Positions 12,442 to 28,802 of a DNA stretch of 40,535 bases are shown here, one piece after another. How positions within the stretch are numbered: position 1 is the stretch's first letter; each line of letters starts with the position of its first letter. Location of the stretch: positions 1 to 40,535 of the forward strand of contig JAAFKJ010000147.1 of NCBI GenBank assembly GCA_021399395.1, read 5' to 3'. Below the pieces are notes generated by a model. The model was not told the origin of the DNA. It worked only from the letters and a program-made list of their open reading frames with translations, and did no database searches. The stretch is from Candidatus Heimdallarchaeota archaeon (GTDB taxonomy: Archaea > Asgardarchaeota > Heimdallarchaeia > Heimdallarchaeales > Heimdallarchaeaceae). Both the position numbers and the translations under genes were made by a program.

Positions 12442-14433
12442 TTATGCTTCTTCTACTTTACCCCTATATCTGCTTGTGGCAATTGCACCAAGAACTACTA
12501 AACCAATGGATACAAAGAATATAATCATAGCTAGAACATCTAGTTTGATTGCTCTTCCTACATCAGGATCCATGAAAACCTCTACTAGCTGTGTTTCATT
12601 ATATCCGTATCCACGTTTGTGCATACGAACATTAACATCTACGAAATTTGCTTTGATTGTATCAACGGGAGTTATTGAACCATTGAAATCAATATTGTCT
12701 CCTGTTGTTATGAGATCTTCTTGATTTCGATCAGCTTTAAGTTCAAGAACAACTACCCAAACGTGAAGGTTATCGACTGTTGTACCATTATCACCAAATA
12801 CAGAAATTTGAACGTGGATTTCACTACCTTCTTCTATCACAGTTTCCTCAACAACAAAATTGTCATATGATAATTGATGTTGTAAGTTGAATAACCATTG
12901 GAGTTGTCTGATTAGTAGGTGTTTATTGTCTTCCTTGAGGATATTTGTTGAATTGAATATATCAGCTGATGCTGTTGCAATAAGTTTTCCACCTCTTTGT
13001 AGTTCAAGAGCTGCTTGAAAAACTGCTGAATCATTTAATCCATAATCAACACTACTATTATACAATCGATTATCATCTAAATCTATATAATATTCTCCAG
13101 ATTTGTTCAAAGTTGCATACAAATCTCCTTCTTGGAATTGAATTATCATCTCTCCAAAGGTTCCATTCATTGTGAAGTTAAATGCAGAACCTTGATAGAA
13201 AATAGTAGAGACGTCCTTATCTGTCATTATTGAGGAATCTGTAAGATAGGGTAAATTAATCATATCACCTGTATCGAGAGTTATTGTTGAATTAACACCT
13301 GTATCCTCTGAACAGACTGTAGAATTGTAAATCTGAAGACCAAAGTTCATCAATAGTTTATTTGCTGGGTCATCATCTTCTGAGACCTCACTTAAAACAT
13401 ACAAACTTCCTCCAGATGAAGTATAGAATCTAATCGCATCAATTTCATCAGCTGTTAAGTCATTTAAATTCCCAATTAGAATAACTAGGTCATAACTTTT
13501 GATTCCACTGTACGTGAATTCATATCCATACTTTTCCATTTGCAGAGTGTTGTTAAATCCATAACTGTCTATAATAGTATTAACAACAGTAAGGTTGCCT
13601 TCTTCAGTGTATGCAGATTCTGAAATATATGTAAGAACACTTTTTTCTGCTAAATCCTCTTCATAAGAGAAATAGTCATATGTTGGATTCATTATGAAAG
13701 ATTTCCAAGCACTAACTCTGTTAAAGAGTAAAGAGTGATTATAAACTGCAGTTTTATTCTGGAAAAGTATTAATAAATATCTTAAAGGCTCACCTTCATG
13801 GAGCTCAATATCATTTCCGGGTTCATCTAATGAATTAAGTTCCTTTGCAATCTCAATTGTAACAACGTGTCTATTGAAGTCATCTAAATACTGATCTAAC
13901 ACTGCAACTGAATTTTCAACTCCAGTAACATTATCATCGGCAACCATAGAATATATAGTTGTCCCGTTGAAATAAACATCCTGAGCCCCTAGTTGTTTAA
14001 AATTCACTACAACTCCATCATCAATGGTATCGTTTGAATAACCTATTCTTGAATCAAAGTTGTTATCAAATGTTACTGCAAACCATGTATGATTAAGAAC
14101 TGGGTCATAATCAACAAAGATGTCTGTTGTATAACTAATACCCATGAATAAATGAGTAGAGTTCGCTTGAACACGGGTTGTAAGAGATATAGTACCTATG
14201 GATTGAGTTTGTACTGTGGCATTTTCCCATTCTCCAGTATAACTTTCTAAATCCCCATCAATGACTGGTTCAGTACTGTTTGAATAAACCATATCTCCTT
14301 GGGGTGTTATTCTGGTATTTCTTTCTTCATCTGATGTCATTGCTTTCAATGAAATACTGCTAAAACTTGCGAGTATTAATCCTAGTATAATTGTTGAAAT
14401 TACAACAAATTTCTTGATATGTCGTGTTCGCAC
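12442..14433 (-). CDS. Type I membrane glycoprotein: DOMON-like + GIFT (IFT52/GldG/Wbp1-like) + Ig-like domain + C-terminal TM
   Basis: Signal peptide; PVIDGD...EW; YDLVILIG..LTADEIDAIRFYTSSGGSLYV and GGKLIATASADIF..N...LQWL; C-terminal TM helix; many NxS/T sequons. Confidence 0.6.
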   Translation of the reverse strand: MRTRHIKKFVVISTIILGLILASFSSISLKAMTSDEERNTRITPQGDMVYSNSTEPVIDGDLESYTGEWENATVQTQSIGTISLTTRVQANSTHLFMGISYTTDIFVDYDPVLNHTWFAVTFDNNFDSRIGYSNDTIDDGVVVNFKQLGAQDVYFNGTTIYSMVADDNVTGVENSVAVLDQYLDDFNRHVVTIEIAKELNSLDEPGNDIELHEGEPLRYLLILFQNKTAVYNHSLLFNRVSAWKSFIMNPTYDYFSYEEDLAEKSVLTYISESAYTEEGNLTVVNTIIDSYGFNNTLQMEKYGYEFTYSGIKSYDLVILIGNLNDLTADEIDAIRFYTSSGGSLYVLSEVSEDDDPANKLLMNFGLQIYNSTVCSEDTGVNSTITLDTGDMINLPYLTDSSIMTDKDVSTIFYQGSAFNFTMNGTFGEMIIQFQEGDLYATLNKSGEYYIDLDDNRLYNSSVDYGLNDSAVFQAALELQRGGKLIATASADIFNSTNILKEDNKHLLIRQLQWLFNLQHQLSYDNFVVEETVIEEGSEIHVQISVFGDNGTTVDNLHVWVVVLELKADRNQEDLITTGDNIDFNGSITPVDTIKANFVDVNVRMHKRGYGYNETQLVEVFMDPDVGRAIKLDVLAMIIFFVSIGLVVLGAIATSRYRGKVEEA

Positions 14434-14610: not shown

Positions 14611-15834
14611 ATGTCTGAACTCAAAGATAAACTCCTGAAAGGCGAGTACAAAGATCAACTTGAGATAAAGGAATCGCCAATATTTGCACTATTGGATATT
14701 TCTGAAGAAGAATCTAAATTTCTCAAAGAAGTTGGGTTAGAAACAATAGAAGATCTTGCGACTAAGTGGAACGACTGTTACGAGAAAATAGCAAAAAAAA
14801 TTCCAAAGGAAAGGATTAACAGCTGGATTGCTGCTAGCCGTCTTTTATCTTTGGAGGAAACTGAAAAAGTGACTACAGGAGCCAAGATTATAATGGTAGG
14901 GATTGATAATGCAGGAAAAACCTCACTCTCCATCGCATTAAAGCATCGTGGTGCACTATCTCAACTATTCCAAAAACTCTATGCTTTAACACCTACACGA
15001 GGTTTACTTAGGAGTAAAATCGAGGTGTTTGGATTGGATGTTCACATGCATGAACTAGGCGGACAGAGCATTTATAGAGAAGATTATTTGAGTAATCCCC
15101 AACAATATTTCGTTGGAACAGACATTATTATTTTTGTGATAGATGTTCAAGCAATAGACAGATTCGAGGAAAGTTTTGAATACCTTAAACAGATTACAAA
15201 TGTTACAAATTCTTTACAGCTGAAAGTTCCTTGGAAAATATTTTTTCATAAATCAGATCCAGAATATGAGATTGATGATAAAAGTGCTGAAGTATTCAGT
15301 TCTATCATAGATTACATGTCCAAAAATTGCCCACATTTCGATCCAGCAAGGGATTTCTTCAGAACCAGTGTGAAAATTAGATCCTCAATATTAGGTGCTT
15401 TTTCTCATATATTCAGAGAAATCTCTCTAATTCAGGATGGAGTTAAAAATGCTTCACAGAATATAGCTGAAGAACTAAAAGCAGACTTCTTTGGGCTATA
15501 TGACTTCAGAAGTAATGTGTGCTTTGCGCAATATGCAAAAGAAGAAAATCTTGTAGACTTATCACACAATGCATATTACGAAGCCATTGAAACAATAGTG
15601 AATATGAGAGAGCCATTTTTAAGAATAAGGAGATATACCCTCGAAGACGAAATCAATGAGATTTTTATTCTCAGAGATTTGCGCTTTGGCGGTGATCGTT
15701 ACATAATGGCAATGTTAACGCAAGATGAAGAAATGTCAAGAAATATAGATCAAGAAGCAATTCAAGACATAATCGATGAGAAATTGCAGGATTGGATTGA
15801 GTTCCGAGGATATGCAACATTCCCATTGGAATGA
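14611..15834 (+). CDS. Arf/Rag-like small GTPase with N-terminal HhH-like and C-terminal longin/roadblock-like domains
   Basis: G1 GIDNAGKTS, G2 PTRG, G3 HELGGQ, IIFVID, G4 HKSD, G5 RTSV. Confidence 0.85.
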   Translation: MSELKDKLLKGEYKDQLEIKESPIFALLDISEEESKFLKEVGLETIEDLATKWNDCYEKIAKKIPKERINSWIAASRLLSLEETEKVTTGAKIIMVGIDNAGKTSLSIALKHRGALSQLFQKLYALTPTRGLLRSKIEVFGLDVHMHELGGQSIYREDYLSNPQQYFVGTDIIIFVIDVQAIDRFEESFEYLKQITNVTNSLQLKVPWKIFFHKSDPEYEIDDKSAEVFSSIIDYMSKNCPHFDPARDFFRTSVKIRSSILGAFSHIFREISLIQDGVKNASQNIAEELKADFFGLYDFRSNVCFAQYAKEENLVDLSHNAYYEAIETIVNMREPFLRIRRYTLEDEINEIFILRDLRFGGDRYIMAMLTQDEEMSRNIDQEAIQDIIDEKLQDWIEFRGYATFPLE

Positions 15835-15924: not shown

Positions 15925-16014
15925 GCTCCGGTAGCTCAGCCTGGCTAGAGCGGTGATCTCGTAAATCTTCGAGAAAGTCGCAGAACGGGGGTTCAAATCC
16001 CCCTCGGAGCTCCA
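15925..16014 (+). tRNA. tRNA-Thr(CGT) with 12-nt intron at 37/38 (15964-15975)
   Basis: Acceptor GCTCCGG/TCGGAGC, anticodon stem GTGAT/GTCGC, CGT at 15960-15962, T arm GGGGG-TTCAAAT-CCCCC, U73, encoded CCA; splice helix CTCG/CGAG. Confidence 0.93.
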
Positions 16015-17563: not shown

Positions 17564-18595
17564 TTGTACAAGAGCAGAATGAGAATCTATAGATCAAAAG
17601 CAACCCAGGTTAAAGGTAAGAACTGGAAAATAGCTTGTGATAGTACAAATTCTACTTACTACCCTTTAGTTTTTTACAGTCATGCTCATTCTGATCATAT
17701 ACCTAGAAGGTTGCCAAAAACAGATATAATTACTTCTCGAATAACACAGATCCTCCTAAAACATTTAACATCAAATTTTGAAGATCCAACTTATCATGAG
17801 ACTTATTCTGCTGATGAACTCGTTATTAAACAGATATCTAGTGGTCACATTGTTGGTTCTACTGCCATGATCTTAGATTCAGATGAAGGTAAACTGATAT
17901 ACACTGGAGATGTATCAATAAGGGAGAAAGGTTTCTTAGAACCATTCAAACCTGAAAAATGTGATAAATTAATAGTTGAAAGCACCTTTGGTTCTCCTGA
18001 ATATATCTTCCCAGAGTATAATGAAATAATAAAAGAAACAAGAGAACAGATCTCAAATTATCTTGAAAATAACATTCCTGTTGTTTTGATGGGTTATGCA
18101 TTAGGAAAAGCACAGATGCTATATCATGCATTTTCAGATCTGTCTGAAACAATAGTTATGCATGGTGCAAATTACAAAATCAACTCCTTACTGCTAGAGG
18201 AGAATGTCGGGGGTTCTATTCCTGCTACAGCATATGAGGAAGCAAAAGAAACTGAATTACTAGAAAAAAGTAATAACTGGATACTTTATACACCTTTAAA
18301 ATCTGGTAGAGACGCTTTTTTTTCTCACCTAAAACAGAAATATGGAGTCAAGCTTTTTGCTTTTAGTGGTTGGTGTATATCACCTAATTACAAATTTAGA
18401 ATGGCGGTTGATCATGGTACCACTATAAGTGATCATGCGGATTTTAAAGAATTAATTGAGATTTGTAACAAATGTGATCCTGATCAGATTTACACAATAT
18501 ACGGTGATAATGTTAGATTTGCGGCGGAATTAAGAAAATTGGGTTTTAACGCATCCCCCTTATCAAAACAGACTCTTCTTGAATCATACTTTTAG
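17564..18595 (+). CDS. MBL-fold beta-CASP nuclease
   Basis: SHAHSDH, GHIVGS, YTGD, ESTFG, YALGKAQ, SGW, SDHAD. Confidence 0.88.
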   Translation: MYKSRMRIYRSKATQVKGKNWKIACDSTNSTYYPLVFYSHAHSDHIPRRLPKTDIITSRITQILLKHLTSNFEDPTYHETYSADELVIKQISSGHIVGSTAMILDSDEGKLIYTGDVSIREKGFLEPFKPEKCDKLIVESTFGSPEYIFPEYNEIIKETREQISNYLENNIPVVLMGYALGKAQMLYHAFSDLSETIVMHGANYKINSLLLEENVGGSIPATAYEEAKETELLEKSNNWILYTPLKSGRDAFFSHLKQKYGVKLFAFSGWCISPNYKFRMAVDHGTTISDHADFKELIEICNKCDPDQIYTIYGDNVRFAAELRKLGFNASPLSKQTLLESYF

Positions 18596-19111: not shown

Positions 19112-21658
19112 CTATCCAAAAACATACTTCATTTCTTTCCAATTAGATATTCTAGCAATCAAGCGATCAAATAAGGAGATGTGCTTCTTAACCATAGCCT
19201 TAGGAGTGTCTGAGAAAACATAGACGTAGTCGACTTTCTTTCTCTCTACTTCATGTGTTTTTTCTCTTATAGAATAAGTTATTTTCTCATCATTTACCTC
19301 AGTCACCATACAAGCTATACCTGTTTCTAACTCTTCCTTAGTAAACAAAATTACTGATTTTCCCACAATCATTTCAATAAGCGATGTCTGCTGTTCAATT
19401 TTATCTTCCAATAATCGCAGAAGGGCAGGAGGTAGTTCAAAGAATAACTCAGAACCCTTATAGTTATGAGTTTTTATATCTTCTTTTTCGAATACTTTCA
19501 ATTTGAATATCGAATTAGAAAATTGATTTGTAAACTCAATGTCTTCTAAAACAGCTCTTCGATCTGCACCATCTTTGTAAATAAAAATATTTTCTCCGAT
19601 TTTCTTTTCGAAATATGATTTAGATTTTCCAGTATAAGATTTTTCAAATTCTTCAGTTGAATCATCTAGAGATCTGAATTGAAAAATTGGAACTTTAGAT
19701 TTCTTAGAAGTCTTCCAAGAAACAAGTTCTCCCATCTTCCCATTTTTCAGGACATATGTTTCACCAATATTTGCTTCATGGATTACATTATCAGTTAGAA
19801 GTATCTGTTTTTCTTCATCATCCTGTTTGACATTTAATAACATGGGAACACAGATAGTATTACTAATCGTTATCCCAGTAACCTCTCCTTCAACAATATT
19901 GTCGAAAGTTCGATCATAAGCAACTATATTTTTCCCTTTTATTTCTGAGATTACTTCATCCATTCGAGTTATTTCAATGAAGGATTTTACTCCATCCTCA
20001 CCATGATATTCATTAAACCGTTCTGAAATCAGTGTGGAGAATTCTTCTCTTTTTTCACTCAATTTCTTAAGTGACCTTTTTCTAATGAAATTTGGTAAAA
20101 TGAACCAAAATGGTAAAAGCGCTCCTTTTACGGGAGAAAACCTTTCATCAACAACTGCAACAATTCTATAAGCTGTTCTTGGGTGAGACATAAAAATATT
20201 TGCGACCATATCCCATCTTCCTGGTTTGTAAATATGCTTATAGAGCCTTATTGCTGCCTCTCCTTGAAATCTTAATTTTTCATCTTCTGTAAATTCTTTT
20301 CCTGTTAACAATTGTACATTTAAACCAAAATCACCAGCGACACCTTGATAGAAACCTTCTAGTTTGTACAATGCTTGAGCTAATTCCTTTCCATAACCTG
20401 CTTTTTTCGTTTGTAAATCTGCGTCTCCTTCAAGAATTCTAACAAATATGTATAATACCGCAACTATACCATAACTAATGAGGAAATACCATCCAAAAGC
20501 AATATCTACTTTTACAGCTGCATAATCCAATGTAGTAGCTGGTAGGAGAAAAGCTTTCTTTATTATCATTTCAATCCAAGCTAATATCTGAAGCCAGATA
20601 ATATGAGCTCGTTTATTATGTGCCAATTCATGAGCCACGATACCTCGTATATCATCATCACTGAAGTCTCCTATATCGGATGCTATCATAGCAACCCTTT
20701 GATCAAACAAAGGTCCATACGCCATTGCATTCAGAATTGGAGCTTCAACAAATCCAACTTTGACTTTTCTCCTGATTCCTAATTTTAGTCTTACTTCTTC
20801 AACGAGCTTTAACACTCTCTCATCATCTGTGGGTTTGATGCCTAGAAGTATAGTTAGTAACCATCCAGATATGAAGTAAAGCAGAATTGAAAGAATTATA
20901 ATAAGCTCCCAAGGTCCGAGAGATAGGAAAACTACTCTATCAACTAGAAGTGAGTCAGCCACGAAAGTATCTGCCTTTACAAGCCCACCCAAAGTATTAC
21001 CATCTTTTGGAAGTGAGAAAGCATTGCTAAAATCAAAGAAGTAGGAAAAAGTATGATAGTAGATATTCAGATAATTCCATGTTAGGTTATCAAATCCTGG
21101 AACTAGTTTTCCAATACCATAAAGTGCTACATAAACTATAGCAAACAGAGTAAGATACAAAACTTGGGGGGACATGAGACGACTTACTAGAACAAATTTC
21201 TTTCCAAAGAAAATCAAAGCTAGAATAATGAAAACATATAACATGAGATTATATGCCCAACCAGTGAAAATCTCAGTTTTTTCATGAGTAACAAGTTCCC
21301 ATACTTTGTCCCCAACAGTTCCAACTAAGAAGACAAAGTATGTTACGACCGATATAATCATTAGTTCTCTCCATACTGGAGAATGTCTTAATTGATAAGT
21401 TTGGTAAACTGCAAGAACAAATAAACTTAGAGCTATACCCAATAACCAATGCTCTAAAAAGAATAAAACTAACCCAAAAGTCATAGCTATCGATGCTAGC
21501 ATAAGATTTTCTGAAGTTGTACCATGTTTTATTTTTGTTCTGATTTCAGATATTAAGAAAAATAATCCTAAAGCAGTAATTATAAGTCCTAAAATCAGTG
21601 TAATGTTACCATCAACCACTAGATTCCACTTATCGAGAAAATAATCTGCTATACTCAT
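19112..21658 (-). CDS. Polytopic membrane M48 (HtpX/Ste24-like) zinc protease with long C-terminal soluble extension
   Basis: NAMAYG, GIVAHELAH, E..AD, LAQALYKL, SHPRTAYRI; many N-terminal TM helices. Confidence 0.88.
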   Translation of the reverse strand: MSIADYFLDKWNLVVDGNITLILGLIITALGLFFLISEIRTKIKHGTTSENLMLASIAMTFGLVLFFLEHWLLGIALSLFVLAVYQTYQLRHSPVWRELMIISVVTYFVFLVGTVGDKVWELVTHEKTEIFTGWAYNLMLYVFIILALIFFGKKFVLVSRLMSPQVLYLTLFAIVYVALYGIGKLVPGFDNLTWNYLNIYYHTFSYFFDFSNAFSLPKDGNTLGGLVKADTFVADSLLVDRVVFLSLGPWELIIILSILLYFISGWLLTILLGIKPTDDERVLKLVEEVRLKLGIRRKVKVGFVEAPILNAMAYGPLFDQRVAMIASDIGDFSDDDIRGIVAHELAHNKRAHIIWLQILAWIEMIIKKAFLLPATTLDYAAVKVDIAFGWYFLISYGIVAVLYIFVRILEGDADLQTKKAGYGKELAQALYKLEGFYQGVAGDFGLNVQLLTGKEFTEDEKLRFQGEAAIRLYKHIYKPGRWDMVANIFMSHPRTAYRIVAVVDERFSPVKGALLPFWFILPNFIRKRSLKKLSEKREEFSTLISERFNEYHGEDGVKSFIEITRMDEVISEIKGKNIVAYDRTFDNIVEGEVTGITISNTICVPMLLNVKQDDEEKQILLTDNVIHEANIGETYVLKNGKMGELVSWKTSKKSKVPIFQFRSLDDSTEEFEKSYTGKSKSYFEKKIGENIFIYKDGADRRAVLEDIEFTNQFSNSIFKLKVFEKEDIKTHNYKGSELFFELPPALLRLLEDKIEQQTSLIEMIVGKSVILFTKEELETGIACMVTEVNDEKITYSIREKTHEVERKKVDYVYVFSDTPKAMVKKHISLFDRLIARISNWKEMKYVFG

Positions 21659-21711: not shown

Positions 21712-22323
21712 TTAAGAAATCGGAATCTGACGAATTACATCATTATTGAGCAAATCTTTTGCTGCTAATTGAGCATCAGTTTCTGTAAGTTTCATTAATT
21801 TTACAATATCGCTTAGTGTCGCAACACCTTTGTATTTCAGAAGCGAAATAACTTTCTTCTGCTGGTGGCTATATGATTTATTAATATCTTGTGTGATAAT
21901 TTTAGGATTTAATTCAAGTTTAGTATTAGCAAGATTTTCAGTAGGTGTGCTATATTTCTTTAAATGTTTGTCAACATAATCGTTCATTAAAGAAAAATGC
22001 TCTACTCGTCCATTCCAATCTTTAAGTTCATCCTCAAATCGGTTGTTGAATTCATCTTGAATGCTTTTTAAATCTGATCTAATCCCACTATCTTCATCGT
22101 CACAATCAGTACAAACGACTGAAACAATTTGTTCGGAAGTAGAATAAATGAACTTATAATTCTTTGTTTGAAGAAAATCGCATCCCTTGTCAACATTTTG
22201 TGCAAAAATCTCAATAGCGCTCAAAAAACTGGTTATAAGATTCTCATCGTGGTCTATGCTACCATACTTCTTATGAAAGAGGCATTCACCTGTATCTTTA
22301 GCTATCCAAATATTATGTAACAT
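21712..22323 (-). CDS. Longin-like domain fused to C-terminal winged HTH
   Basis: MLHNIWIAKDTGECLF...LITSFLSAIEIFA...EF...F...W.G...F is longin-like; VISLLKYKGVATLSDIVKLMKL is HTH-like. ATG 22323 preferred over track start 22386. Confidence 0.7.
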   Translation of the reverse strand: MLHNIWIAKDTGECLFHKKYGSIDHDENLITSFLSAIEIFAQNVDKGCDFLQTKNYKFIYSTSEQIVSVVCTDCDDEDSGIRSDLKSIQDEFNNRFEDELKDWNGRVEHFSLMNDYVDKHLKKYSTPTENLANTKLELNPKIITQDINKSYSHQQKKVISLLKYKGVATLSDIVKLMKLTETDAQLAAKDLLNNDVIRQIPIS

Positions 22324-22463
22324 AGACTTCAAGAAGATAAAAAATGACTTAGCACAAAAACTCATATAATACATGGGTATTTTCACGCGTACACTTAAGG
22401 AGAAAATTAAAACCTAATTTCATAACATAAACTATCAAAAAAATTAAAGAAAAAGAGAAGTAA

Positions 22464-23120
22464 CTATGCTTTATAAGGCATAATTTCTATGACGATATTT
22501 TCATCTATTAGTTCGACATCTCTTGCAGCTTTTCGAACAGCTTCCTTAGCGATTTCAACCATCTGTTCAGTGGTTAAATCATCGTTGTAGGTTTCTTTCA
22601 AATAAGCAATAGCTTCAGAATCACCTTCACCCATTGCCTTAGCTTTGCAAGACATTACTCCGCCACCAGGATCAACGAAATGGAGACTTGGACCTGTTTG
22701 ATCTAAACCGCCAAATAGTAACCCTACTCCAAATGGTCGAAGACCACCTTGTTGAGTAAATACTTGGATGTAATCTCCTATTTTAATTGAGAGCCCTCTA
22801 ACATCCAATGGTTCTGCATAAGTCAGTCTGAATATTTCTGCTTCTAATCTAGAACGAGAGATGAGAATTCGACCATCTGCTGCAACTCCAGCAAATATAG
22901 CTTGAATATTTTCTGATATTTTGTGAATCTTCAAATCTGGTTCGTTCAAATCAACGATTCTGAGTAATCCTGCAAGTACTACACCGTGTTTACTTTTAAT
23001 GCCGACTGCAATACTTCCTCTCCTGACAGATTCTCTAGCATATTCTGTTTGAATAATACGTCCTTCAGGTGAGTACATTGTTGTTGTTCTATCGTATCCC
23101 ATTGATTGTGGTCCTAACAT
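22464..23120 (-). CDS. psmA: 20S proteasome alpha subunit
   Basis: GYDR...YSPEGRIIQTEYA, G..ADGR, TQ.GGLRPFGV, DPGG, A.G. Confidence 0.95.
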   Translation of the reverse strand: MLGPQSMGYDRTTTMYSPEGRIIQTEYARESVRRGSIAVGIKSKHGVVLAGLLRIVDLNEPDLKIHKISENIQAIFAGVAADGRILISRSRLEAEIFRLTYAEPLDVRGLSIKIGDYIQVFTQQGGLRPFGVGLLFGGLDQTGPSLHFVDPGGGVMSCKAKAMGEGDSEAIAYLKETYNDDLTTEQMVEIAKEAVRKAARDVELIDENIVIEIMPYKA

Positions 23121-23124
23121 TTTC

Positions 23125-23787
23125 TTATGCCTCCAAATGTTTCTTTACTTCAGCAGCAGTCAATCTCTTGACTCCTTTTTTGTTCACTACTAAAACATCC
23201 ATTCCGTCACCTGTGGCAGTATCTCTGCTTGTCGCGGTAGCTAATGCTGTAATAGCAATCTTCAAACCTGCTTCTTCAGTTAAGTCTTCTTTCCATTGTG
23301 ATTCGAGGACACCATATGCGACTAAAGAGCCTGATCCGGTAGATGCAAAGTCTTCTTCAGTTATTCCTCCAGCCATATCTAATGTGTAGATGTGACCTCC
23401 ATCCTTGTCTAGACCTGCTACTATCATACTCACATAATAGGGGAAATATGCTCTATATTGCTCGTACATAATGGATGCAAGAAGATTTCCTGCCATTTTT
23501 GTAGATGGATCATATCCTCTTCCTAGTGCGTAGAGGTTTAGATTTGCTCGTGTCAGGTGAACTAGATATTGCGCATCTGAGACCAATCCCGCAATGGTAG
23601 CAATTGTAAAATCGTTGATTTCATGCAATTTTTTTGCCTTTTTAGATGCGATAAAAGAACCCATAGAAGCCCTTTTATCAGCAGCAGCTGCAATTCCACC
23701 TTTGAATTTTAATGCAATTGTTGTCGTACCATGTTTAGGATCCATAAATGGGTTATTTGTCATCCCATTAAAGTTTGGATTGTTCAT
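23125..23787 (-). CDS. psmB: 20S proteasome beta subunit
   Basis: 20-aa propeptide then G|TTT; DKRAS, KKL, AGLVSDAQ, GSGS..AYGVLE, RDTATGDG. Confidence 0.96.
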   Translation of the reverse strand: MNNPNFNGMTNNPFMDPKHGTTTIALKFKGGIAAAADKRASMGSFIASKKAKKLHEINDFTIATIAGLVSDAQYLVHLTRANLNLYALGRGYDPSTKMAGNLLASIMYEQYRAYFPYYVSMIVAGLDKDGGHIYTLDMAGGITEEDFASTGSGSLVAYGVLESQWKEDLTEEAGLKIAITALATATSRDTATGDGMDVLVVNKKGVKRLTAAEVKKHLEA

Positions 23788-23849: not shown

Positions 23850-24566
23850 TCAATTGTAAGTTGTTTCATCGATATGAGTTACTATTTCATCTTCATATAC
23901 ATCAATGCTTACATCATCTAGGTTTAATAATTCATTACTTACCCAATTTGCAACCATCCCTATACTTGAACTAGTAGATTGGTTTTCTCTATACTCAACA
24001 TCAATTGTTCCATCTTTGTGAATAAACAAGCGAACTTGATTATTTTCGGAATCTTCCCAACATAATTGAATAAAACAGTTTATTTCTCTTTTGTAAAGAA
24101 AACGAAAGTTACCAAACCATCTCTTTTCAAGAATTGAAGTTACTATTTCTTGTTCTAAAGGGGGTACAGTTTTTATTTTCTTCCATTGGGAATTATAGTT
24201 ATTGCCTTGTATGTTTATAGCTTTGGCACTTAGAAGATCCTTAATTAGTGATTTTGTGTATCTGCCACCAGAATAAGTTAATTCATAGGTTCCTATATCA
24301 TTTTTAGATAGATACTTCCTACTTTGTAATCTTTTCAATGCTTTTGTAAGCTGATGCTGATGAAGATCAGTGGTCTTTCTTAATCCTGAAAAACTATATG
24401 AAATATTAGAATCTGATAATGTAAGTAGTAATTGAACCTCAGGCAGAGTCATATATTCATACTCTGTACTATAGAAGTAATCAGTAGGCAGATTATCTAA
24501 TTTTAAACTATTATCACTAGTTTGTTTAAAACTTGATAAATCATAATACCCTCGGTCCATATTCAT
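23850..24566 (-). CDS. Winged-HTH domain protein
   Basis: YSFSGLRKTTDLHQHQLTKALKRL...GTYELT. Confidence 0.7.
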   Translation of the reverse strand: MNMDRGYYDLSSFKQTSDNSLKLDNLPTDYFYSTEYEYMTLPEVQLLLTLSDSNISYSFSGLRKTTDLHQHQLTKALKRLQSRKYLSKNDIGTYELTYSGGRYTKSLIKDLLSAKAINIQGNNYNSQWKKIKTVPPLEQEIVTSILEKRWFGNFRFLYKREINCFIQLCWEDSENNQVRLFIHKDGTIDVEYRENQSTSSSIGMVANWVSNELLNLDDVSIDVYEDEIVTHIDETTYN

Positions 24567-24626
24567 AATATTATCAATATATTCTTTGACATAACACTAT
24601 ATAATGACTCGGTTTTATACGAAGTT

Positions 24627-26408
24627 TCACTTACTCTGTGTTGAATTATCCTTCTGTTTCTTATTGTCACTAGATGAGTCTGTAGCATCCTGAGAGGGTG
24701 ATGCTGCTGTTGGGTGTAAATAAACTTCTCCTTCAAGAATGGTATATGGTATCCTACGTTCGTCAACCCATGGTGCATCCTCACGGAATTCTTTAAACAT
24801 ATCATTACTTACTACCATTGCATTTTCTTCATCAGCTAAACGTAAGATGAATTTATCACCATCTACTCGTGCTGGAAGCATTTTTATTGCTCCTTCTTTT
24901 ACCAATTGATCAAGTCTTTTTTGCTCATCAATCTGGTATCTGAGTGCAGCATCAGCAACCGTGATTATTTTCTTAAAATTCGCTCTACTCAATCTGTTTA
25001 TCATAGATTCAACATTTGCAATTTTAGGTTTGTTTGAAGTATTTTTCTCTTCCCAAGCGATATTGGAACCATCTAAGATTGCTGTTTCAAATGGATAATT
25101 TAATTCTGGAAAAATTCTTTCTCGAGAAATCTGAGCTCTTTTAGCTAAACCAAGAAAAATATCTCTTGAGAAATATGCTACTCCCAGAAGTAAAGTAGTA
25201 AATACGATCCCATAAGCAATTTGTATAGTTATCTGTGGATTAACAAAATCTTCTATTGAGATAACTAAAACTTCTTGAAATCTAGTCAGAAGTATATTTG
25301 TATACCATTTTGTTTCAGCAACTGTGGTCCACTCTAAATCTATAGTGAAAAACAAAGCAATAGATCCTGAGCTGGTCGGATTACCTTCAAATGATAAATA
25401 GTTAATTCCAGAAGTTATTCTTGAAGAACTATCAATACTGTCAAAGTCAATGTTTTCACAATCCACTATTGGTAGAACATATAGCGATTCTCCTTCATTA
25501 TTGGTTATTTCATATTTTATTGTATATTGTTCTCCCATGGTGACATTAATGGGCAAATACCAACTATCAATTGTAATATTTGGCATAACAATAATTTCTA
25601 GAGTGTCACTTTCTGTAGCTTTTTCTGTTTCTGGGTCATCTATTGTTCGATAGGTTAAAGTGAAAGAGTGTTTCTGATAGAGATAAGTGTCAGGATAAAA
25701 TCCAACATAATCAGAAATACTATCTCCACCTTCAATTTCTAGATTCGAAACAGAGATTGATCGAGTAATTGATCCTGGTGTGCCTGTTTTATCTATTTCA
25801 TTAGTAACTGTAACATTCGTAACTGTTGTACCACCTGTATTTGAAATTGTAAATGGGACATTATTATTCTGTTCTCTATCAAGATAAACAGTCCTACCGT
25901 TTGGAAAGTACATTCTTAATTTTCCAAATGGAAGAACTATTAATTCAAATGTATCAGAAGCATATTGCATCTCAGCAGTTGTACTATTTGCATATGCATT
26001 TACTGTATAATTTCCAGCATCTTGACTATTGAATGTTGACCATGGTATAGTGTGATTGACATACCCAGTAGATGTTTCATTTAATAGTATGGTATTCTCA
26101 TAAATTACTTCAATAGCTGGATTTGTTATATTCAATTCAATATATGAATCTGGTATATAGGTATCATTACTTTCATAAGTATATTGGAGTGATAAAAGGA
26201 GATCATCTTCTCCTCTTGTCAAGCTAGATGAATTCAACTCCATAATAAACGTTGCATTCTCAAGAATGTTGAGGGCTGGATATTGTGAGTTAGGTTTAGG
26301 ATGGTCCATCGCTTCAACTACATGATATGAAGGATTAAACAAGAAAGTAAAAAACATGAATCCTACAACTAGTATATTGATTCGTTTTTCCAATGACCTC
26401 CTATACAT
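24627..26408 (-). CDS. Single-pass membrane protein: extracellular Ig/CARDB-like region + cytoplasmic Zc3h12a/NYN (PIN-like) RNase domain
   Basis: N-terminal signal, beta-rich sequon-rich region, TM (IAYGIVFTTLLLGVAYF), then AILDGSNIAW, VADAALR, DGDKFIL, VVSNDMFKEF. Confidence 0.85.
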   Translation of the reverse strand: MYRRSLEKRINILVVGFMFFTFLFNPSYHVVEAMDHPKPNSQYPALNILENATFIMELNSSSLTRGEDDLLLSLQYTYESNDTYIPDSYIELNITNPAIEVIYENTILLNETSTGYVNHTIPWSTFNSQDAGNYTVNAYANSTTAEMQYASDTFELIVLPFGKLRMYFPNGRTVYLDREQNNNVPFTISNTGGTTVTNVTVTNEIDKTGTPGSITRSISVSNLEIEGGDSISDYVGFYPDTYLYQKHSFTLTYRTIDDPETEKATESDTLEIIVMPNITIDSWYLPINVTMGEQYTIKYEITNNEGESLYVLPIVDCENIDFDSIDSSSRITSGINYLSFEGNPTSSGSIALFFTIDLEWTTVAETKWYTNILLTRFQEVLVISIEDFVNPQITIQIAYGIVFTTLLLGVAYFSRDIFLGLAKRAQISRERIFPELNYPFETAILDGSNIAWEEKNTSNKPKIANVESMINRLSRANFKKIITVADAALRYQIDEQKRLDQLVKEGAIKMLPARVDGDKFILRLADEENAMVVSNDMFKEFREDAPWVDERRIPYTILEGEVYLHPTAASPSQDATDSSSDNKKQKDNSTQSK

Positions 26409-26509
26409 AAATTACACTTCTATTCTATTATTCAAGTTAAATATTTCTTATTAGTTTAATAAGTTTAACGTGAGTAAACAGTTTTTTCCATAAAAAAATA
26501 AAAAAATGA

Positions 26510-26841
26510 TGAACGATGCGAAAATACCCCTGATTCTGTTGGGAAGCCGTCTAGGACCTTCCGGGCAACATTCGTCTAAGCGCTTTACCCAGTTCATACG
26601 AACTCTACTTAAGCTTGCTCCTCGATGATTGACCGTTTCACCGTTTCCTATATTCTCCTCAGCAAATTATCTCTAAAGATGTTACCACTTTATTCATCGC
26701 ATCATTGTCTCTGAATATAGGTCGTGTCGTTTCTGTTCCAAGAGCCATGTTCTCACATGGTGGATTTACATCCACATCGATTTTTATGGAGTCAGGAGGT
26801 TCCTCAGCAATATGCCGATAGTTGCCATTTCGCTTCGTTCA
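26510..26841 (-). ncRNA. rnpB: Archaeal RNase P RNA
   Basis: Minus strand: P1 GAACGAAGCGAAA/TTTCGCATCGTTC; GAGGAACCTCCTGA pairs with AACAGAATCAGGGGTA (P4); ACAGAAACG, TGAAACGG, GAGCAAG and GCTTAGACGAATG conserved regions. Confidence 0.92.
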
Positions 26842-28724: not shown

Positions 28725-28802
28725 GGGCCAGTAGTCTAGCCTGGATAAGGCACCTGCTTGCGGAGTAGGGAATCGCAGGTTCAAGTCCTGCCTGGCCCGC
28801 CA
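28725..28802 (+). tRNA. tRNA-Arg(GCG), no intron
   Basis: Acceptor GGGCCAG/CTGGCCC, anticodon stem CCTGC/GTAGG, GCG at 28760-28762, T arm GCAGG-TTCAAGT-CCTGC, G73, encoded CCA. Confidence 0.96.

Follow-up and report, generated by a model that had tools for sequence, protein, structure and literature searches.

A type I membrane protein with an Ig-like ectodomain and a Regnase-type NYN nuclease domain in one order of Heimdallarchaeia

The DNA analyzed here (the window) comprises 40,535 nucleotides (nt) of contig JAAFKJ010000147.1 from a Candidatus Heimdallarchaeota archaeon of the family Heimdallarchaeaceae (assembly GCA_021399395.1). On its minus strand, at 24627-26408, lies an open reading frame (ORF) of 593 amino acids (aa), P0001, assigned from the ORF list, its Pfam match and its homologues as a type I membrane NYN ribonuclease. 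The protein starts with a Sec-type signal peptide (residues 1-33; 26310-26408), followed by an extracellular region of 359 aa built of three tandem Ig-like beta-sandwiches (residues 34-392; 25233-26309) and a single transmembrane helix (residues 393-411; 25176-25232; ITIQIAYGIVFTTLLLGVA). A basic juxtamembrane segment and flexible linker, recognized from the alignment and low model confidence (residues 412-441; 25086-25175), then leads into a Zc3h12a/Regnase-type NYN (PIN-like) nuclease domain (residues 442-566; 24711-25085) and a variable, low-complexity acidic/basic tail (residues 567-593; 24630-24710), all on the minus strand. A glycosylated Ig-like ectodomain outside the cell, one membrane span and a Regnase-type NYN domain inside is thus the strongly supported architecture of P0001. 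An earlier reading made from the letters of this DNA and its ORF translations (the sequence-only reading) had proposed a signal peptide, a sequon-rich beta ectodomain of about 360 aa, a transmembrane segment at about 25170-25235 and a PIN-like domain at about 24710-25090. All of these features were found close to those places, the transmembrane segment at 25176-25232 and the Pfam match to the nuclease domain at 24720-25085.

That match, to RNase_Zc3h12a (PF11977; residues 442-563, E 1.9e-16), is the single significant Pfam family in P0001, scoring 60.6 bits against a curated cutoff of 23 (63.9 bits in the whole-genome scan), and is the only match to PF11977 in the genome from which the window derives. 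The other Pfam matches at E <= 1 were CARDB, DUF7507 and TRAP_beta; the CARDB match was sub-threshold (residues 179-226, 15.6 versus 22.7 bits). An NCBIfam scan returned sub-threshold noise only. An 80-codon ORF in another frame (24563-24805) overlaps the 3' end of the NYN ORF and is taken as a by-product of it. The G+C content is 32-36% along the whole length of the window.

The two strongest hydrophobic stretches of P0001 are residues 12-24 (13-aa Kyte-Doolittle mean, 2.72) and residues 393-411 (19-aa mean, 1.92). Transmembrane calls throughout this study were made with Kyte-Doolittle windows and not with a trained predictor, and the segments flagged inside NYN domains (L052, L053, P0187) are probably false positives. 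The N terminus combines nine K/R-rich residues (MYRRSLEKR), the hydrophobic region at 12-24 and a V-E-A|M site, and it looks like a Sec signal whose predicted cleavage would follow an Ala that is shared at position -1 by many sequences of the family alignment (A1) but not by every one. Lys and Arg are found five times in the 20 residues after the transmembrane helix and not once in the 15 before it; in a homologue set of 63 proteins that includes P0001, the 46 with two hydrophobic segments and a length of 550 aa or more averaged 3.54 after and 0.33 before. Residues 34-392 hold 11 N-X-S/T sequons, compared with 6.3 ± 2.1 in composition-preserving shuffles (127 of 5,000 shuffles reached 11), and the cytoplasmic part holds 2, compared with 1.2 ± 1.0. 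In the alignment of 28 homologues, ten sequon positions recur in 14 or more sequences, and N93 and N141 in all 28. The same asymmetry was observed in 12 proteins from sister families, which carry 135 sequons outside (3.12 per 100 aa) and 4 inside (0.20 per 100 aa); overall, the densities are 3.1 per 100 aa outside and 0.2-0.3 inside. Because of the K/R distribution (the positive-inside rule) together with the sequon asymmetry, the beta-rich part is placed outside and the nuclease domain is predicted to be cytoplasmic, as the sequence-only reading had it.

The full-length AlphaFold2 model, built from a 28-sequence alignment, has a mean predicted local distance difference test (pLDDT) score of 78.3. 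The ectodomain (residues 34-392) is modelled as all-beta at a pLDDT of about 89 and contains one Cys; its residues 50-385 (block means mostly 85-93) fold into three sandwiches at about 50-157, 164-274 and 278-383. Around the membrane, a continuous helix (391-425) that includes the transmembrane segment is followed by disorder (424-434; pLDDT <50) and then by the alpha/beta domain at 442-566, and the tail again falls below a pLDDT of 50. In the juxtamembrane motif YFSRD, Y412, S414 and R415 are invariant in the family; sister families retain the motif only loosely. In Foldseek, the whole model matched tandem ASH/HYDIN-type arrays of the ciliary central apparatus (7sqc, 9ijj) as well as MG domains from complement C3/C5 and alpha-2-macroglobulins, at E of about 1e-12; the global TM-scores were low, which is expected when multidomain chains are flexible. 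Positions 187-332 of the family profile also matched a 1,771-aa protein, P0123, in 11 stretches (E 2.5e-21), and Pfam finds 15 HYDIN/VesB/ASH/CARDB Ig-like repeats in that protein. The P0001 ectodomain therefore belongs with the CARDB/ASH/HYDIN-type Ig-like surface domains at the level of fold or superfamily only. It also resembles archaeal CARDB and surface layer (S-layer)-type domains by feature similarity, with scores below 0.9 that serve as leads only.

As the whole-protein Foldseek search returned only beta-sandwich arrays, which swamped the nuclease domain, the NYN domain was folded alone from a 47-sequence Asgard alignment (A2), giving a pLDDT of 93.4 and a predicted template modelling score of 0.87. 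The best PDB match of this domain model was ZC3H12C (7ndk; E 7.8e-9, TM-score 0.72-0.75), followed by ZC3H12B with RNA (6sjd; 0.73), Regnase-1/MCPIP1 (5h9v and 3v33, 0.70; 3v34, 0.73) and KHNYN (9s2d, 0.71; 8wzc, 0.68). The top Zc3h12a-type matches spanned TM-scores of 0.64-0.75, with the protein-only RNase P enzymes below them (PRORP2, 0.65-0.69; PRORP1, 0.61-0.65) and generic PIN domains much lower. The A2 profile ranked PDB sequences in the same way (ZC3H12C, 2.8e-15; ZC3H12A, 5.5e-14; KHNYN, 5e-12; PRORP2, 1.4e-9; positions 17-139 of 145), and weaker searches gave 0.0017 to KHNYN (single-sequence phmmer) and 2.4e-5 (full-length profile). The assignment of the C-terminal domain to the Zc3h12a/Regnase-type NYN nucleases is thus strongly supported by hidden Markov model, profile and fold alike, and the PIN/NYN fold proposed in the sequence-only reading is borne out by ZC3H12C, ZC3H12B, Regnase-1 and KHNYN at TM-scores of 0.70-0.75. 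No Cys occurs after the transmembrane helix and no zinc-finger Pfam match was found in P0001 at E <= 1; therefore, the CCCH zinc finger that marks the ZC3H12A-D subfamily is absent. Constraint differs strongly along the chain: mean identity to P0001 among 27 other aligned sequences is 85% in the NYN domain (76-98%), 47% in the ectodomain (29-78%) and 24% in the tail.

The acidic motifs named in the sequence-only reading are all present, as DGSN (446-449), VAD (484-486), DGD (516-518) and SND (534-536). Eleven of 13 motif residues are invariant in 28 family members, and T483 and S534 are conserved in 90% or more; D446, N449, D486, D516, D518, N535, D536 and E540 are found in 28/28. In the text available from Matelska et al. 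(PMC5499597), the MCPIP1 active site consists of D141, D225, D226, D244 and D248, and in that from Xu et al. (PMC3413151), D141A, D225A, D226A and D244A each abolish activity, N144A does not, and D226 contacts Mg2+ directly. HMMER alignments pair D446 with D141 (IDGSN), D518 with D226 (the second Asp of DDRF), D536 with D244 (SND) and E540 with D248; which residue number belongs to which motif of the PDB chains is our reading of those motifs. Three of the four essential MCPIP1 Asp residues (D141, D225, D226 and D244) thus align with Asp in P0001, and the position of D225 is occupied by G517. The DGD motif named in the sequence-only reading does not align as the Regnase "DD" pair. D486, in turn, sits where the ZC3H12 proteins have Pro.

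The glycine at position 517 is a reason to consider a catalytically dead surface protein, in which the NYN domain would serve as an RNA- or protein-binding module beneath a structural or adhesive surface glycoprotein, and the portion of the Matelska et al. catalogue at hand (PMC5499597) describes zero to five active-site residues across the RNase_Zc3h12a family. However, all other acidic positions are invariant, and retention of every remaining catalytic residue at 100% is rare in dead enzymes. A comparison with more distant relatives also points away from loss. Of 116 further listed representatives from a global search, 108 aligned to the domain model and 8 did not; among these 108, in the matches listed, D446 is kept in 108, N449 in 107, D518 in 105, N535 in 105 and D536 in 107, with D or E at position 540 in 89. 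Of the 108, 86 have an acid at 486 alone and 17 at 517 alone; none has one at both positions, and 5 have one at neither. Since the acids at 486 and 517 are mutually exclusive in 103 of 108 relatives, the carboxylate appears to have been relocated rather than lost, and D486 probably replaces D225 as the fourth carboxylate of P0001. The pattern suggests two alternative metal-site designs among prokaryotic and metagenomic Zc3h12a-type NYN domains, P0001 being apparently of the majority "486" type and the eukaryotic enzymes of the "517" (DD) type. We infer that the nuclease is active, and a dead enzyme is the least probable of the readings considered here.

The fusion of ectodomain, membrane span and nuclease is conserved well outside this assembly. 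A word-indexed search collected 63 proteins including P0001, the 62 homologues being 37-84% identical to it, with coverage of 88-100% in almost every case and PF11977 in all except one. Where given, their source names are Heimdallarchaeota, Heimdallarchaeaceae, Heimdallarchaeum aukensis or "Asgard group", and their product names are "hypothetical protein", "NYN domain-containing protein" or a UniRef label beginning "RNase NYN d...". An exhaustive profile search of 1.84 billion representatives returned 914 proteins at E <= 1e-3. Of these, 34 reached E <= 1e-30, the majority aligned along almost all of the 581-position profile and the others being shorter fragments. A gap in score follows these 34 (1.4e-48 to 3.3e-29), and below it almost all matches are NYN-only, with two ectodomain fragments. 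A transmembrane segment was predicted in 29 of the 31 new members of the top group; the other two are fragments of 116 and 143 aa.

In a species-level set of 400 Asgard genomes, the A1 profile matched 122. Within the family, 26 of the 30 other genomes carry a full-length orthologue, and the four that gave no match have a completeness of 79-90%. Matches were also present in 13 of 16 genomes from three sister families in this order (1/1, 2/3 and 10/12), mainly over the transmembrane and NYN parts and in frames of 568-636 aa, with one more match in a 108-aa fragment at a contig end. All 13 sister-family loci examined share one layout: a hydrophobic segment at the N terminus, some 360 aa, a strong transmembrane segment (Kyte-Doolittle, 2.1-3.4) and a C-terminal NYN domain. 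This layout was found in none of 28 other NYN ORFs (133-1,022 aa) from 27 loci, 26 of them from other Asgard lineages plus that of a second ORF in G044; one of these ORFs, at L051, has three predicted transmembrane segments C-terminal to its NYN domain. The membrane NYN gene is thus lineage specific, mostly single copy and near universal in one order of Heimdallarchaeia. Full-length orthologues in the family and diverged orthologues of the same layout in the sister families show that the fusion is not an assembly artifact, a possibility raised with the sequence-only reading, which had allowed that it might occur in this assembly only. One sister-family genome carries two full-size membrane NYN genes, in frames of 595 aa (L030, G010:C183) and 569 aa (L031, G010:C55).

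Other NYN proteins have also been joined to membranes. Among the 116 further representatives listed, Kyte-Doolittle windows flagged a transmembrane segment in 14. Two of these do not count, P0123 because it lacks an NYN domain and P0187 because its segment lies inside the domain, so that 12 membrane-coupled relatives are left. Several of these (P0101, P0118, P0180 and P0204) consist of an N-terminal transmembrane segment and an NYN domain only. P0108 has a small type I layout, with a hydrophobic stretch at residues 1-19, a transmembrane segment at 241-259 and the NYN domain at 318-448 (Pfam, 82.5 bits). Its eleven close relatives (including P0211-P0220; 60-93% identical) are labelled Thermofilaceae or Thermofilum where named, and proteins of this type have 414-474 aa, apart from one 249-aa fragment, and the source name "hypothetical protein" wherever one is given. 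Only the NYN domain is related between P0108 and the Heimdallarchaeial family (hhalign probability, 99.3%; 31% identity over 128 columns); the ectodomain of about 220 aa is not detectably related. As Thermofilaceae fuse an unrelated ectodomain and a transmembrane segment to the same domain, NYN acts like an output module to which various extracellular parts can be attached. Two proteins of about 890-910 aa (P0106 and P0176) show weak sub-threshold AAA_16/STAND-NTPase matches in the N-terminal part and NYN at the C terminus, and an 894-aa ORF with a C-terminal NYN domain (L035, G079:C361) has a similar conflict-system-like layout in another genome of the class Heimdallarchaeia.

Such conflict-type architectures lend some support to a surface-sensing antiviral or abortive-infection device, in which the ectodomain would sense an attaching virus or a damaged envelope and the NYN domain would then destroy viral or host RNA. 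The ectodomain also evolves much faster than the nuclease, and Regnase-1 is recorded as cleaving viral RNA in the excerpted catalogue (PMC5499597). However, P0001 gave no family at E <= 0.01 in PADLOC, the distribution is core-like rather than patchy with one copy in the window's genome, and the sequons are conserved, not hypervariable. Synteny with housekeeping genes is stable (see below), with no neighboring defense genes. As the gene is near universal, mostly single copy and syntenic, a defense island is argued against, and the defense system inferred in the sequence-only reading is disfavored; we consider an antiviral role unlikely.

Directly upstream of the NYN ORF, a 499-nt gap holds a full-length archaeal RNase P RNA gene on the same strand (26514-26837, minus strand; RF00373, 165.3 bits against a cutoff of 84, model positions 1-288), which the sequence-only reading had not mentioned. 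It lies 105 nt before the ORF start, and the stretch just before the ATG is AT rich. This adjacency, an observation new in this analysis, is seen on the same strand in 18 of 19 family loci and in all five loci from other genera of the family (23/24); the sole exception, L021, begins inside the NYN gene. The next gene further upstream varies among the 19 family loci (an aminotransferase in 12, a 121-aa ORF in 4). Among the 13 sister-family loci, no RNase P RNA was found near the NYN gene within the 1.2-3.6 kb covered on each side. Because the adjacency is strict in one family and absent outside it, it possibly reflects inherited synteny and not a functional link.

Two runs of seven T (26506-26500 and 26498-26492; 26492-26506, minus strand) follow the 3' end of the RNase P RNA as a candidate terminator and, judged by their sequence, likely form an archaeal one. 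With both runs lying between them, the RNase P RNA and the NYN ORF are probably separate transcription units, and co-transcription is unlikely. RNA evidence came from five metatranscriptome runs of two studies, each with 6-7% of the sampled words, of which four were aligned. Contigs span the RNase P RNA (26526-26824), and none bridges it and the NYN ORF in the four runs aligned; two short contigs of 90-94% identity, from relatives, fall on the NYN ORF (24971-25180 and 25687-25837). As RNA libraries may contain DNA, these contigs support neither a claim of expression nor one of co-transcription, and stretches that they leave bare carry no weight as evidence.

Downstream, after 60 nt, follows a gene for a 238-aa MarR-like winged-helix protein (23850-24566, minus strand; sub-threshold MarR_2 and SarA/Rot matches), and then the proteasome beta (23125-23787) and alpha (22464-23120) genes, both on the minus strand (PF00227; 181.5 and 150.8 bits for the beta/alpha pair). 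The 238-aa gene adjoins the NYN gene in 23 of the 24 family loci, the exception being L018, which stops short of it, and the proteasome beta gene follows in 21 of 24, the other three contigs ending first. The 238-aa protein consists of an N-terminal winged helix-turn-helix and an uncharacterized C-terminal half; it matches PADLOC WH_III-A at 1.1e-5 and MarR/HTH_5 clusters in the Atlas at a feature score of 0.96, the latter a lead only. Its adjacency even where it is inverted (L062 and L063), and the PIN-like nature of the NYN nuclease, are what one would expect of a toxin-antitoxin-like or regulator pair, in which the MarR-like protein would restrain the nuclease (compare VapB/VapC) or the RNase would control its output. 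However, tblastn found no homologue of the 238-aa protein beside the NYN gene in the 13 sister-family loci. Toxin-antitoxin modules are, moreover, small, soluble, mobile and patchy, and a core-like membrane protein of 593 aa is none of these, so that such a pairing seems very unlikely.

The neighborhood also bears on a constitutive role, that is, a membrane-tethered housekeeping endoribonuclease corresponding to RNase Y or RNase E, with an ectodomain that would only position or stabilize the enzyme, for example via the S-layer. Core genes flank it on both sides in the family (RNase P RNA upstream in 23/24 loci, the proteasome downstream), the gene is near universal, mostly single copy and syntenic there, and the NYN domain is under very strong constraint. 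Among the 13 sister-family loci, the neighbors include a protein of about 605 aa with a weak N-terminal PIN_12 match in 6 and an AlaX-like tRNA-editing gene in 5 (for these two, see for example L023:340-2154 and L023:4227-5432), a glycerate-kinase-like gene in 4 and an alkaline phosphatase in 4, with no single partner gene common to all 13; the tRNA-editing and PIN_12 genes would suit RNA processing. The resemblance of the NYN fold to PRORP and of the ectodomain to archaeal CARDB and S-layer-type domains is likewise consistent with such a role. However, a conserved, glycosylated ectodomain of 360 aa far exceeds what an anchor needs, as simple forms of transmembrane segment and NYN domain exist elsewhere. 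The RNase P RNA is adjacent in 0/13 sister-family loci, and in the window the two T runs lie between it and the ORF. In addition, the family is confined to one order and hence cannot serve RNA decay in archaea at large. A constitutive role in processing or degrading RNA is nevertheless possible, if doubtful, and it comes a close second to control by the ectodomain.

Further genes were recorded elsewhere in the window. A 407-aa protein (14611-15834, plus strand) matches Gtr1/RagA (63.2 bits) and Arf (61.7 bits) as a eukaryote-like small GTPase. Eukaryote-like small GTPases are typical of Asgard archaea. Just downstream of proteasome alpha, a 224-aa ORF (21712-22386, minus strand) has sub-threshold longin-type matches (Clat_adaptor_s and Fuz_longin_1), and a 663-aa ORF (12442-14433, minus strand) matches the IFT52 GIFT domain at 28.1 bits against a cutoff of 27.2, with no single stretch passing alone. 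An 848-aa protein with a Peptidase_M48 domain (19112-21658, minus strand) and a 343-aa ORF with a sub-threshold match to RMMBL, the metallo-beta-lactamase RNA-specificity domain (17564-18595, plus strand), were also found. Two tRNA genes were detected with Rfam on the plus strand, at 28725-28799 (56.7 bits) and at 15925-16011 (48.8 bits; 87 nt compared with a 71-position model).

Taken together, we favor, with a little less than even confidence, a Sec-exported, glycosylated type I protein carrying an active, membrane-proximal NYN RNase that is controlled by lateral association of its ectodomain. The layout is strongly supported: after Sec export and N-glycosylation, the three Ig-like (CARDB/ASH-type) sandwiches stand outside the cell, and the single transmembrane helix and the flexible linker of about 30 residues hold the NYN domain, of a metal-dependent endoribonuclease type, near the inner face of the membrane. 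Because this tether is short, P0001 would cut membrane-proximal RNA, such as mRNAs under translation at the translocon. In the least certain step, NYN domains might be brought together, and RNA cleavage triggered, when the ectodomain binds a ligand of the surface or envelope or touches a neighboring molecule, so that P0001 would act as a simple IRE1-style transmembrane sensor-RNase made from unrelated parts. Control by the ectodomain is favored because simple anchors exist elsewhere, because the Thermofilaceae ectodomain is different, and because the Regnase-1 PIN domain needs oligomerization, which clustering would supply; in the available text of the Regnase-1 study (PMC4772114), mutations that block PIN oligomerization abolish RNase activity in vitro. 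Since other NYN relatives manage with a bare N-terminal transmembrane segment, and given the Thermofilaceae fusion, the P0001 ectodomain is probably more than an anchor. Ligand- or clustering-gated RNase activity, including a switch by an extracellular cue as proposed in the sequence-only reading, is plausible. Only tentatively can a full transmembrane signaling RNase be proposed, a counterpart of IRE1 and regulated IRE1-dependent decay (RIDD). Its ectodomain would be clustered through contact with a ligand at the surface, with the S-layer, with a partner cell or with a virus, and the resulting NYN oligomers would cleave membrane-proximal mRNAs or stable-RNA precursors.

Several observations weigh against an ectodomain-controlled RNase. 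The position of D225 is G517 in P0001, and D225A alone abolishes Regnase-1 activity in the portion of the mutagenesis study cited (PMC3413151). In the same partial source, Xu et al. saw a mainly monomeric MCPIP1 nuclease domain in solution, so the requirement for oligomerization is not undisputed. The cytoplasmic part of P0001 contains no RNA-binding accessory domain by Pfam at E <= 1, and no Cys and hence no CCCH finger. The housekeeping-like distribution and the RNase P RNA/proteasome neighborhood fit a constitutive enzyme equally well. A homodimer prediction with two copies of residues 385-575 returned a score of 0.00 and no answer, and is evidence for neither side.

Regnase-type NYN nucleases are known in animals as soluble regulators of mRNA stability and as antiviral factors, and here such a domain stands behind a cell-surface glycoprotein. 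Were the nuclease under the control of its ectodomain, P0001 would represent a new class of archaeal receptor and the simplest route known from an event at the cell surface to the cutting of RNA. A gated enzyme would amount to a prokaryotic, Regnase-based counterpart of IRE1/RIDD in an archaeal class placed close to eukaryotes, and a constitutive one would be an archaeal membrane-localized RNA-processing enzyme comparable to bacterial RNase E and RNase Y. The carboxylate at 486 or 517 offers a simple, testable point on how metal sites are constructed in the NYN family, and the adjacency to RNase P RNA offers a concrete first substrate hypothesis for the nuclease.

P0001 is a new architecture of a known kind of enzyme. 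It shares its nuclease domain with Regnase-1/MCPIP1 (ZC3H12A), ZC3H12B-D, KHNYN and N4BP1, including equivalents of D141, D226, D244 and D248 and the motifs DGSN and SND. In contrast to these eukaryotic enzymes, it is anchored behind a glycosylated ectodomain and has no CCCH, KH or ubiquitin-binding domains, and it differs from the ZC3H12 proteins in the Gly at the D225 position, the extra D486 in place of their Pro and a shorter loop before the strand of D518. To our knowledge, all studied RNase_Zc3h12a members are soluble. A full-text literature search, with subscription journals outside its scope, found no published account of a Zc3h12a-type RNase bound to a membrane, whether in Asgard archaea or in other organisms. 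The available text of the PIN-superfamily catalogue of Matelska et al. (PMC5499597) counts 23 archaeal and 154 bacterial members of RNase_Zc3h12a, calling the function of the bacterial members unknown and giving none for the archaeal ones; Supplementary Table S1 of that paper, described there as holding per-sequence TMHMM predictions, may already list proteins of this family with transmembrane segments. The closest counterpart of P0001 in layout is the Thermofilaceae P0108 type, which has a homologous NYN domain but belongs to a different phylum and has a shorter, not detectably related ectodomain.

IRE1 shares with P0001 the overall logic of a type I protein with an outside or lumenal sensor, one transmembrane segment and a cytoplasmic RNase that would act on membrane-proximal RNA, possibly after oligomerization. 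However, P0001 has no kinase or KEN match at E <= 1 and its PIN-like nuclease fold is unrelated, so that the likeness is a functional analogy and not membership. Bacterial RNase Y and RNase E also hold an endoribonuclease at the cytoplasmic face of the membrane and have the distribution of core genes within their lineages. RNase Y is built of an N-terminal transmembrane segment with KH and HD domains and RNase E is bound by an amphipathic helix, neither having a large ectodomain. Their catalytic folds are unrelated to that of P0001, in which no KH or HD match was found at E <= 1. PRORP stands nearer in structure (Foldseek TM-score, 0.61-0.69; profile E 1.4e-9 to PRORP2), and the accessible part of PMC5499597 places PRORP and RNase_Zc3h12a in one PIN-like group; the P0001 gene, moreover, adjoins an RNase P RNA gene. 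However, P0001 has no PPR, zinc-binding or PRORP Pfam match at E <= 1, and the organism possesses a canonical RNase P RNA.

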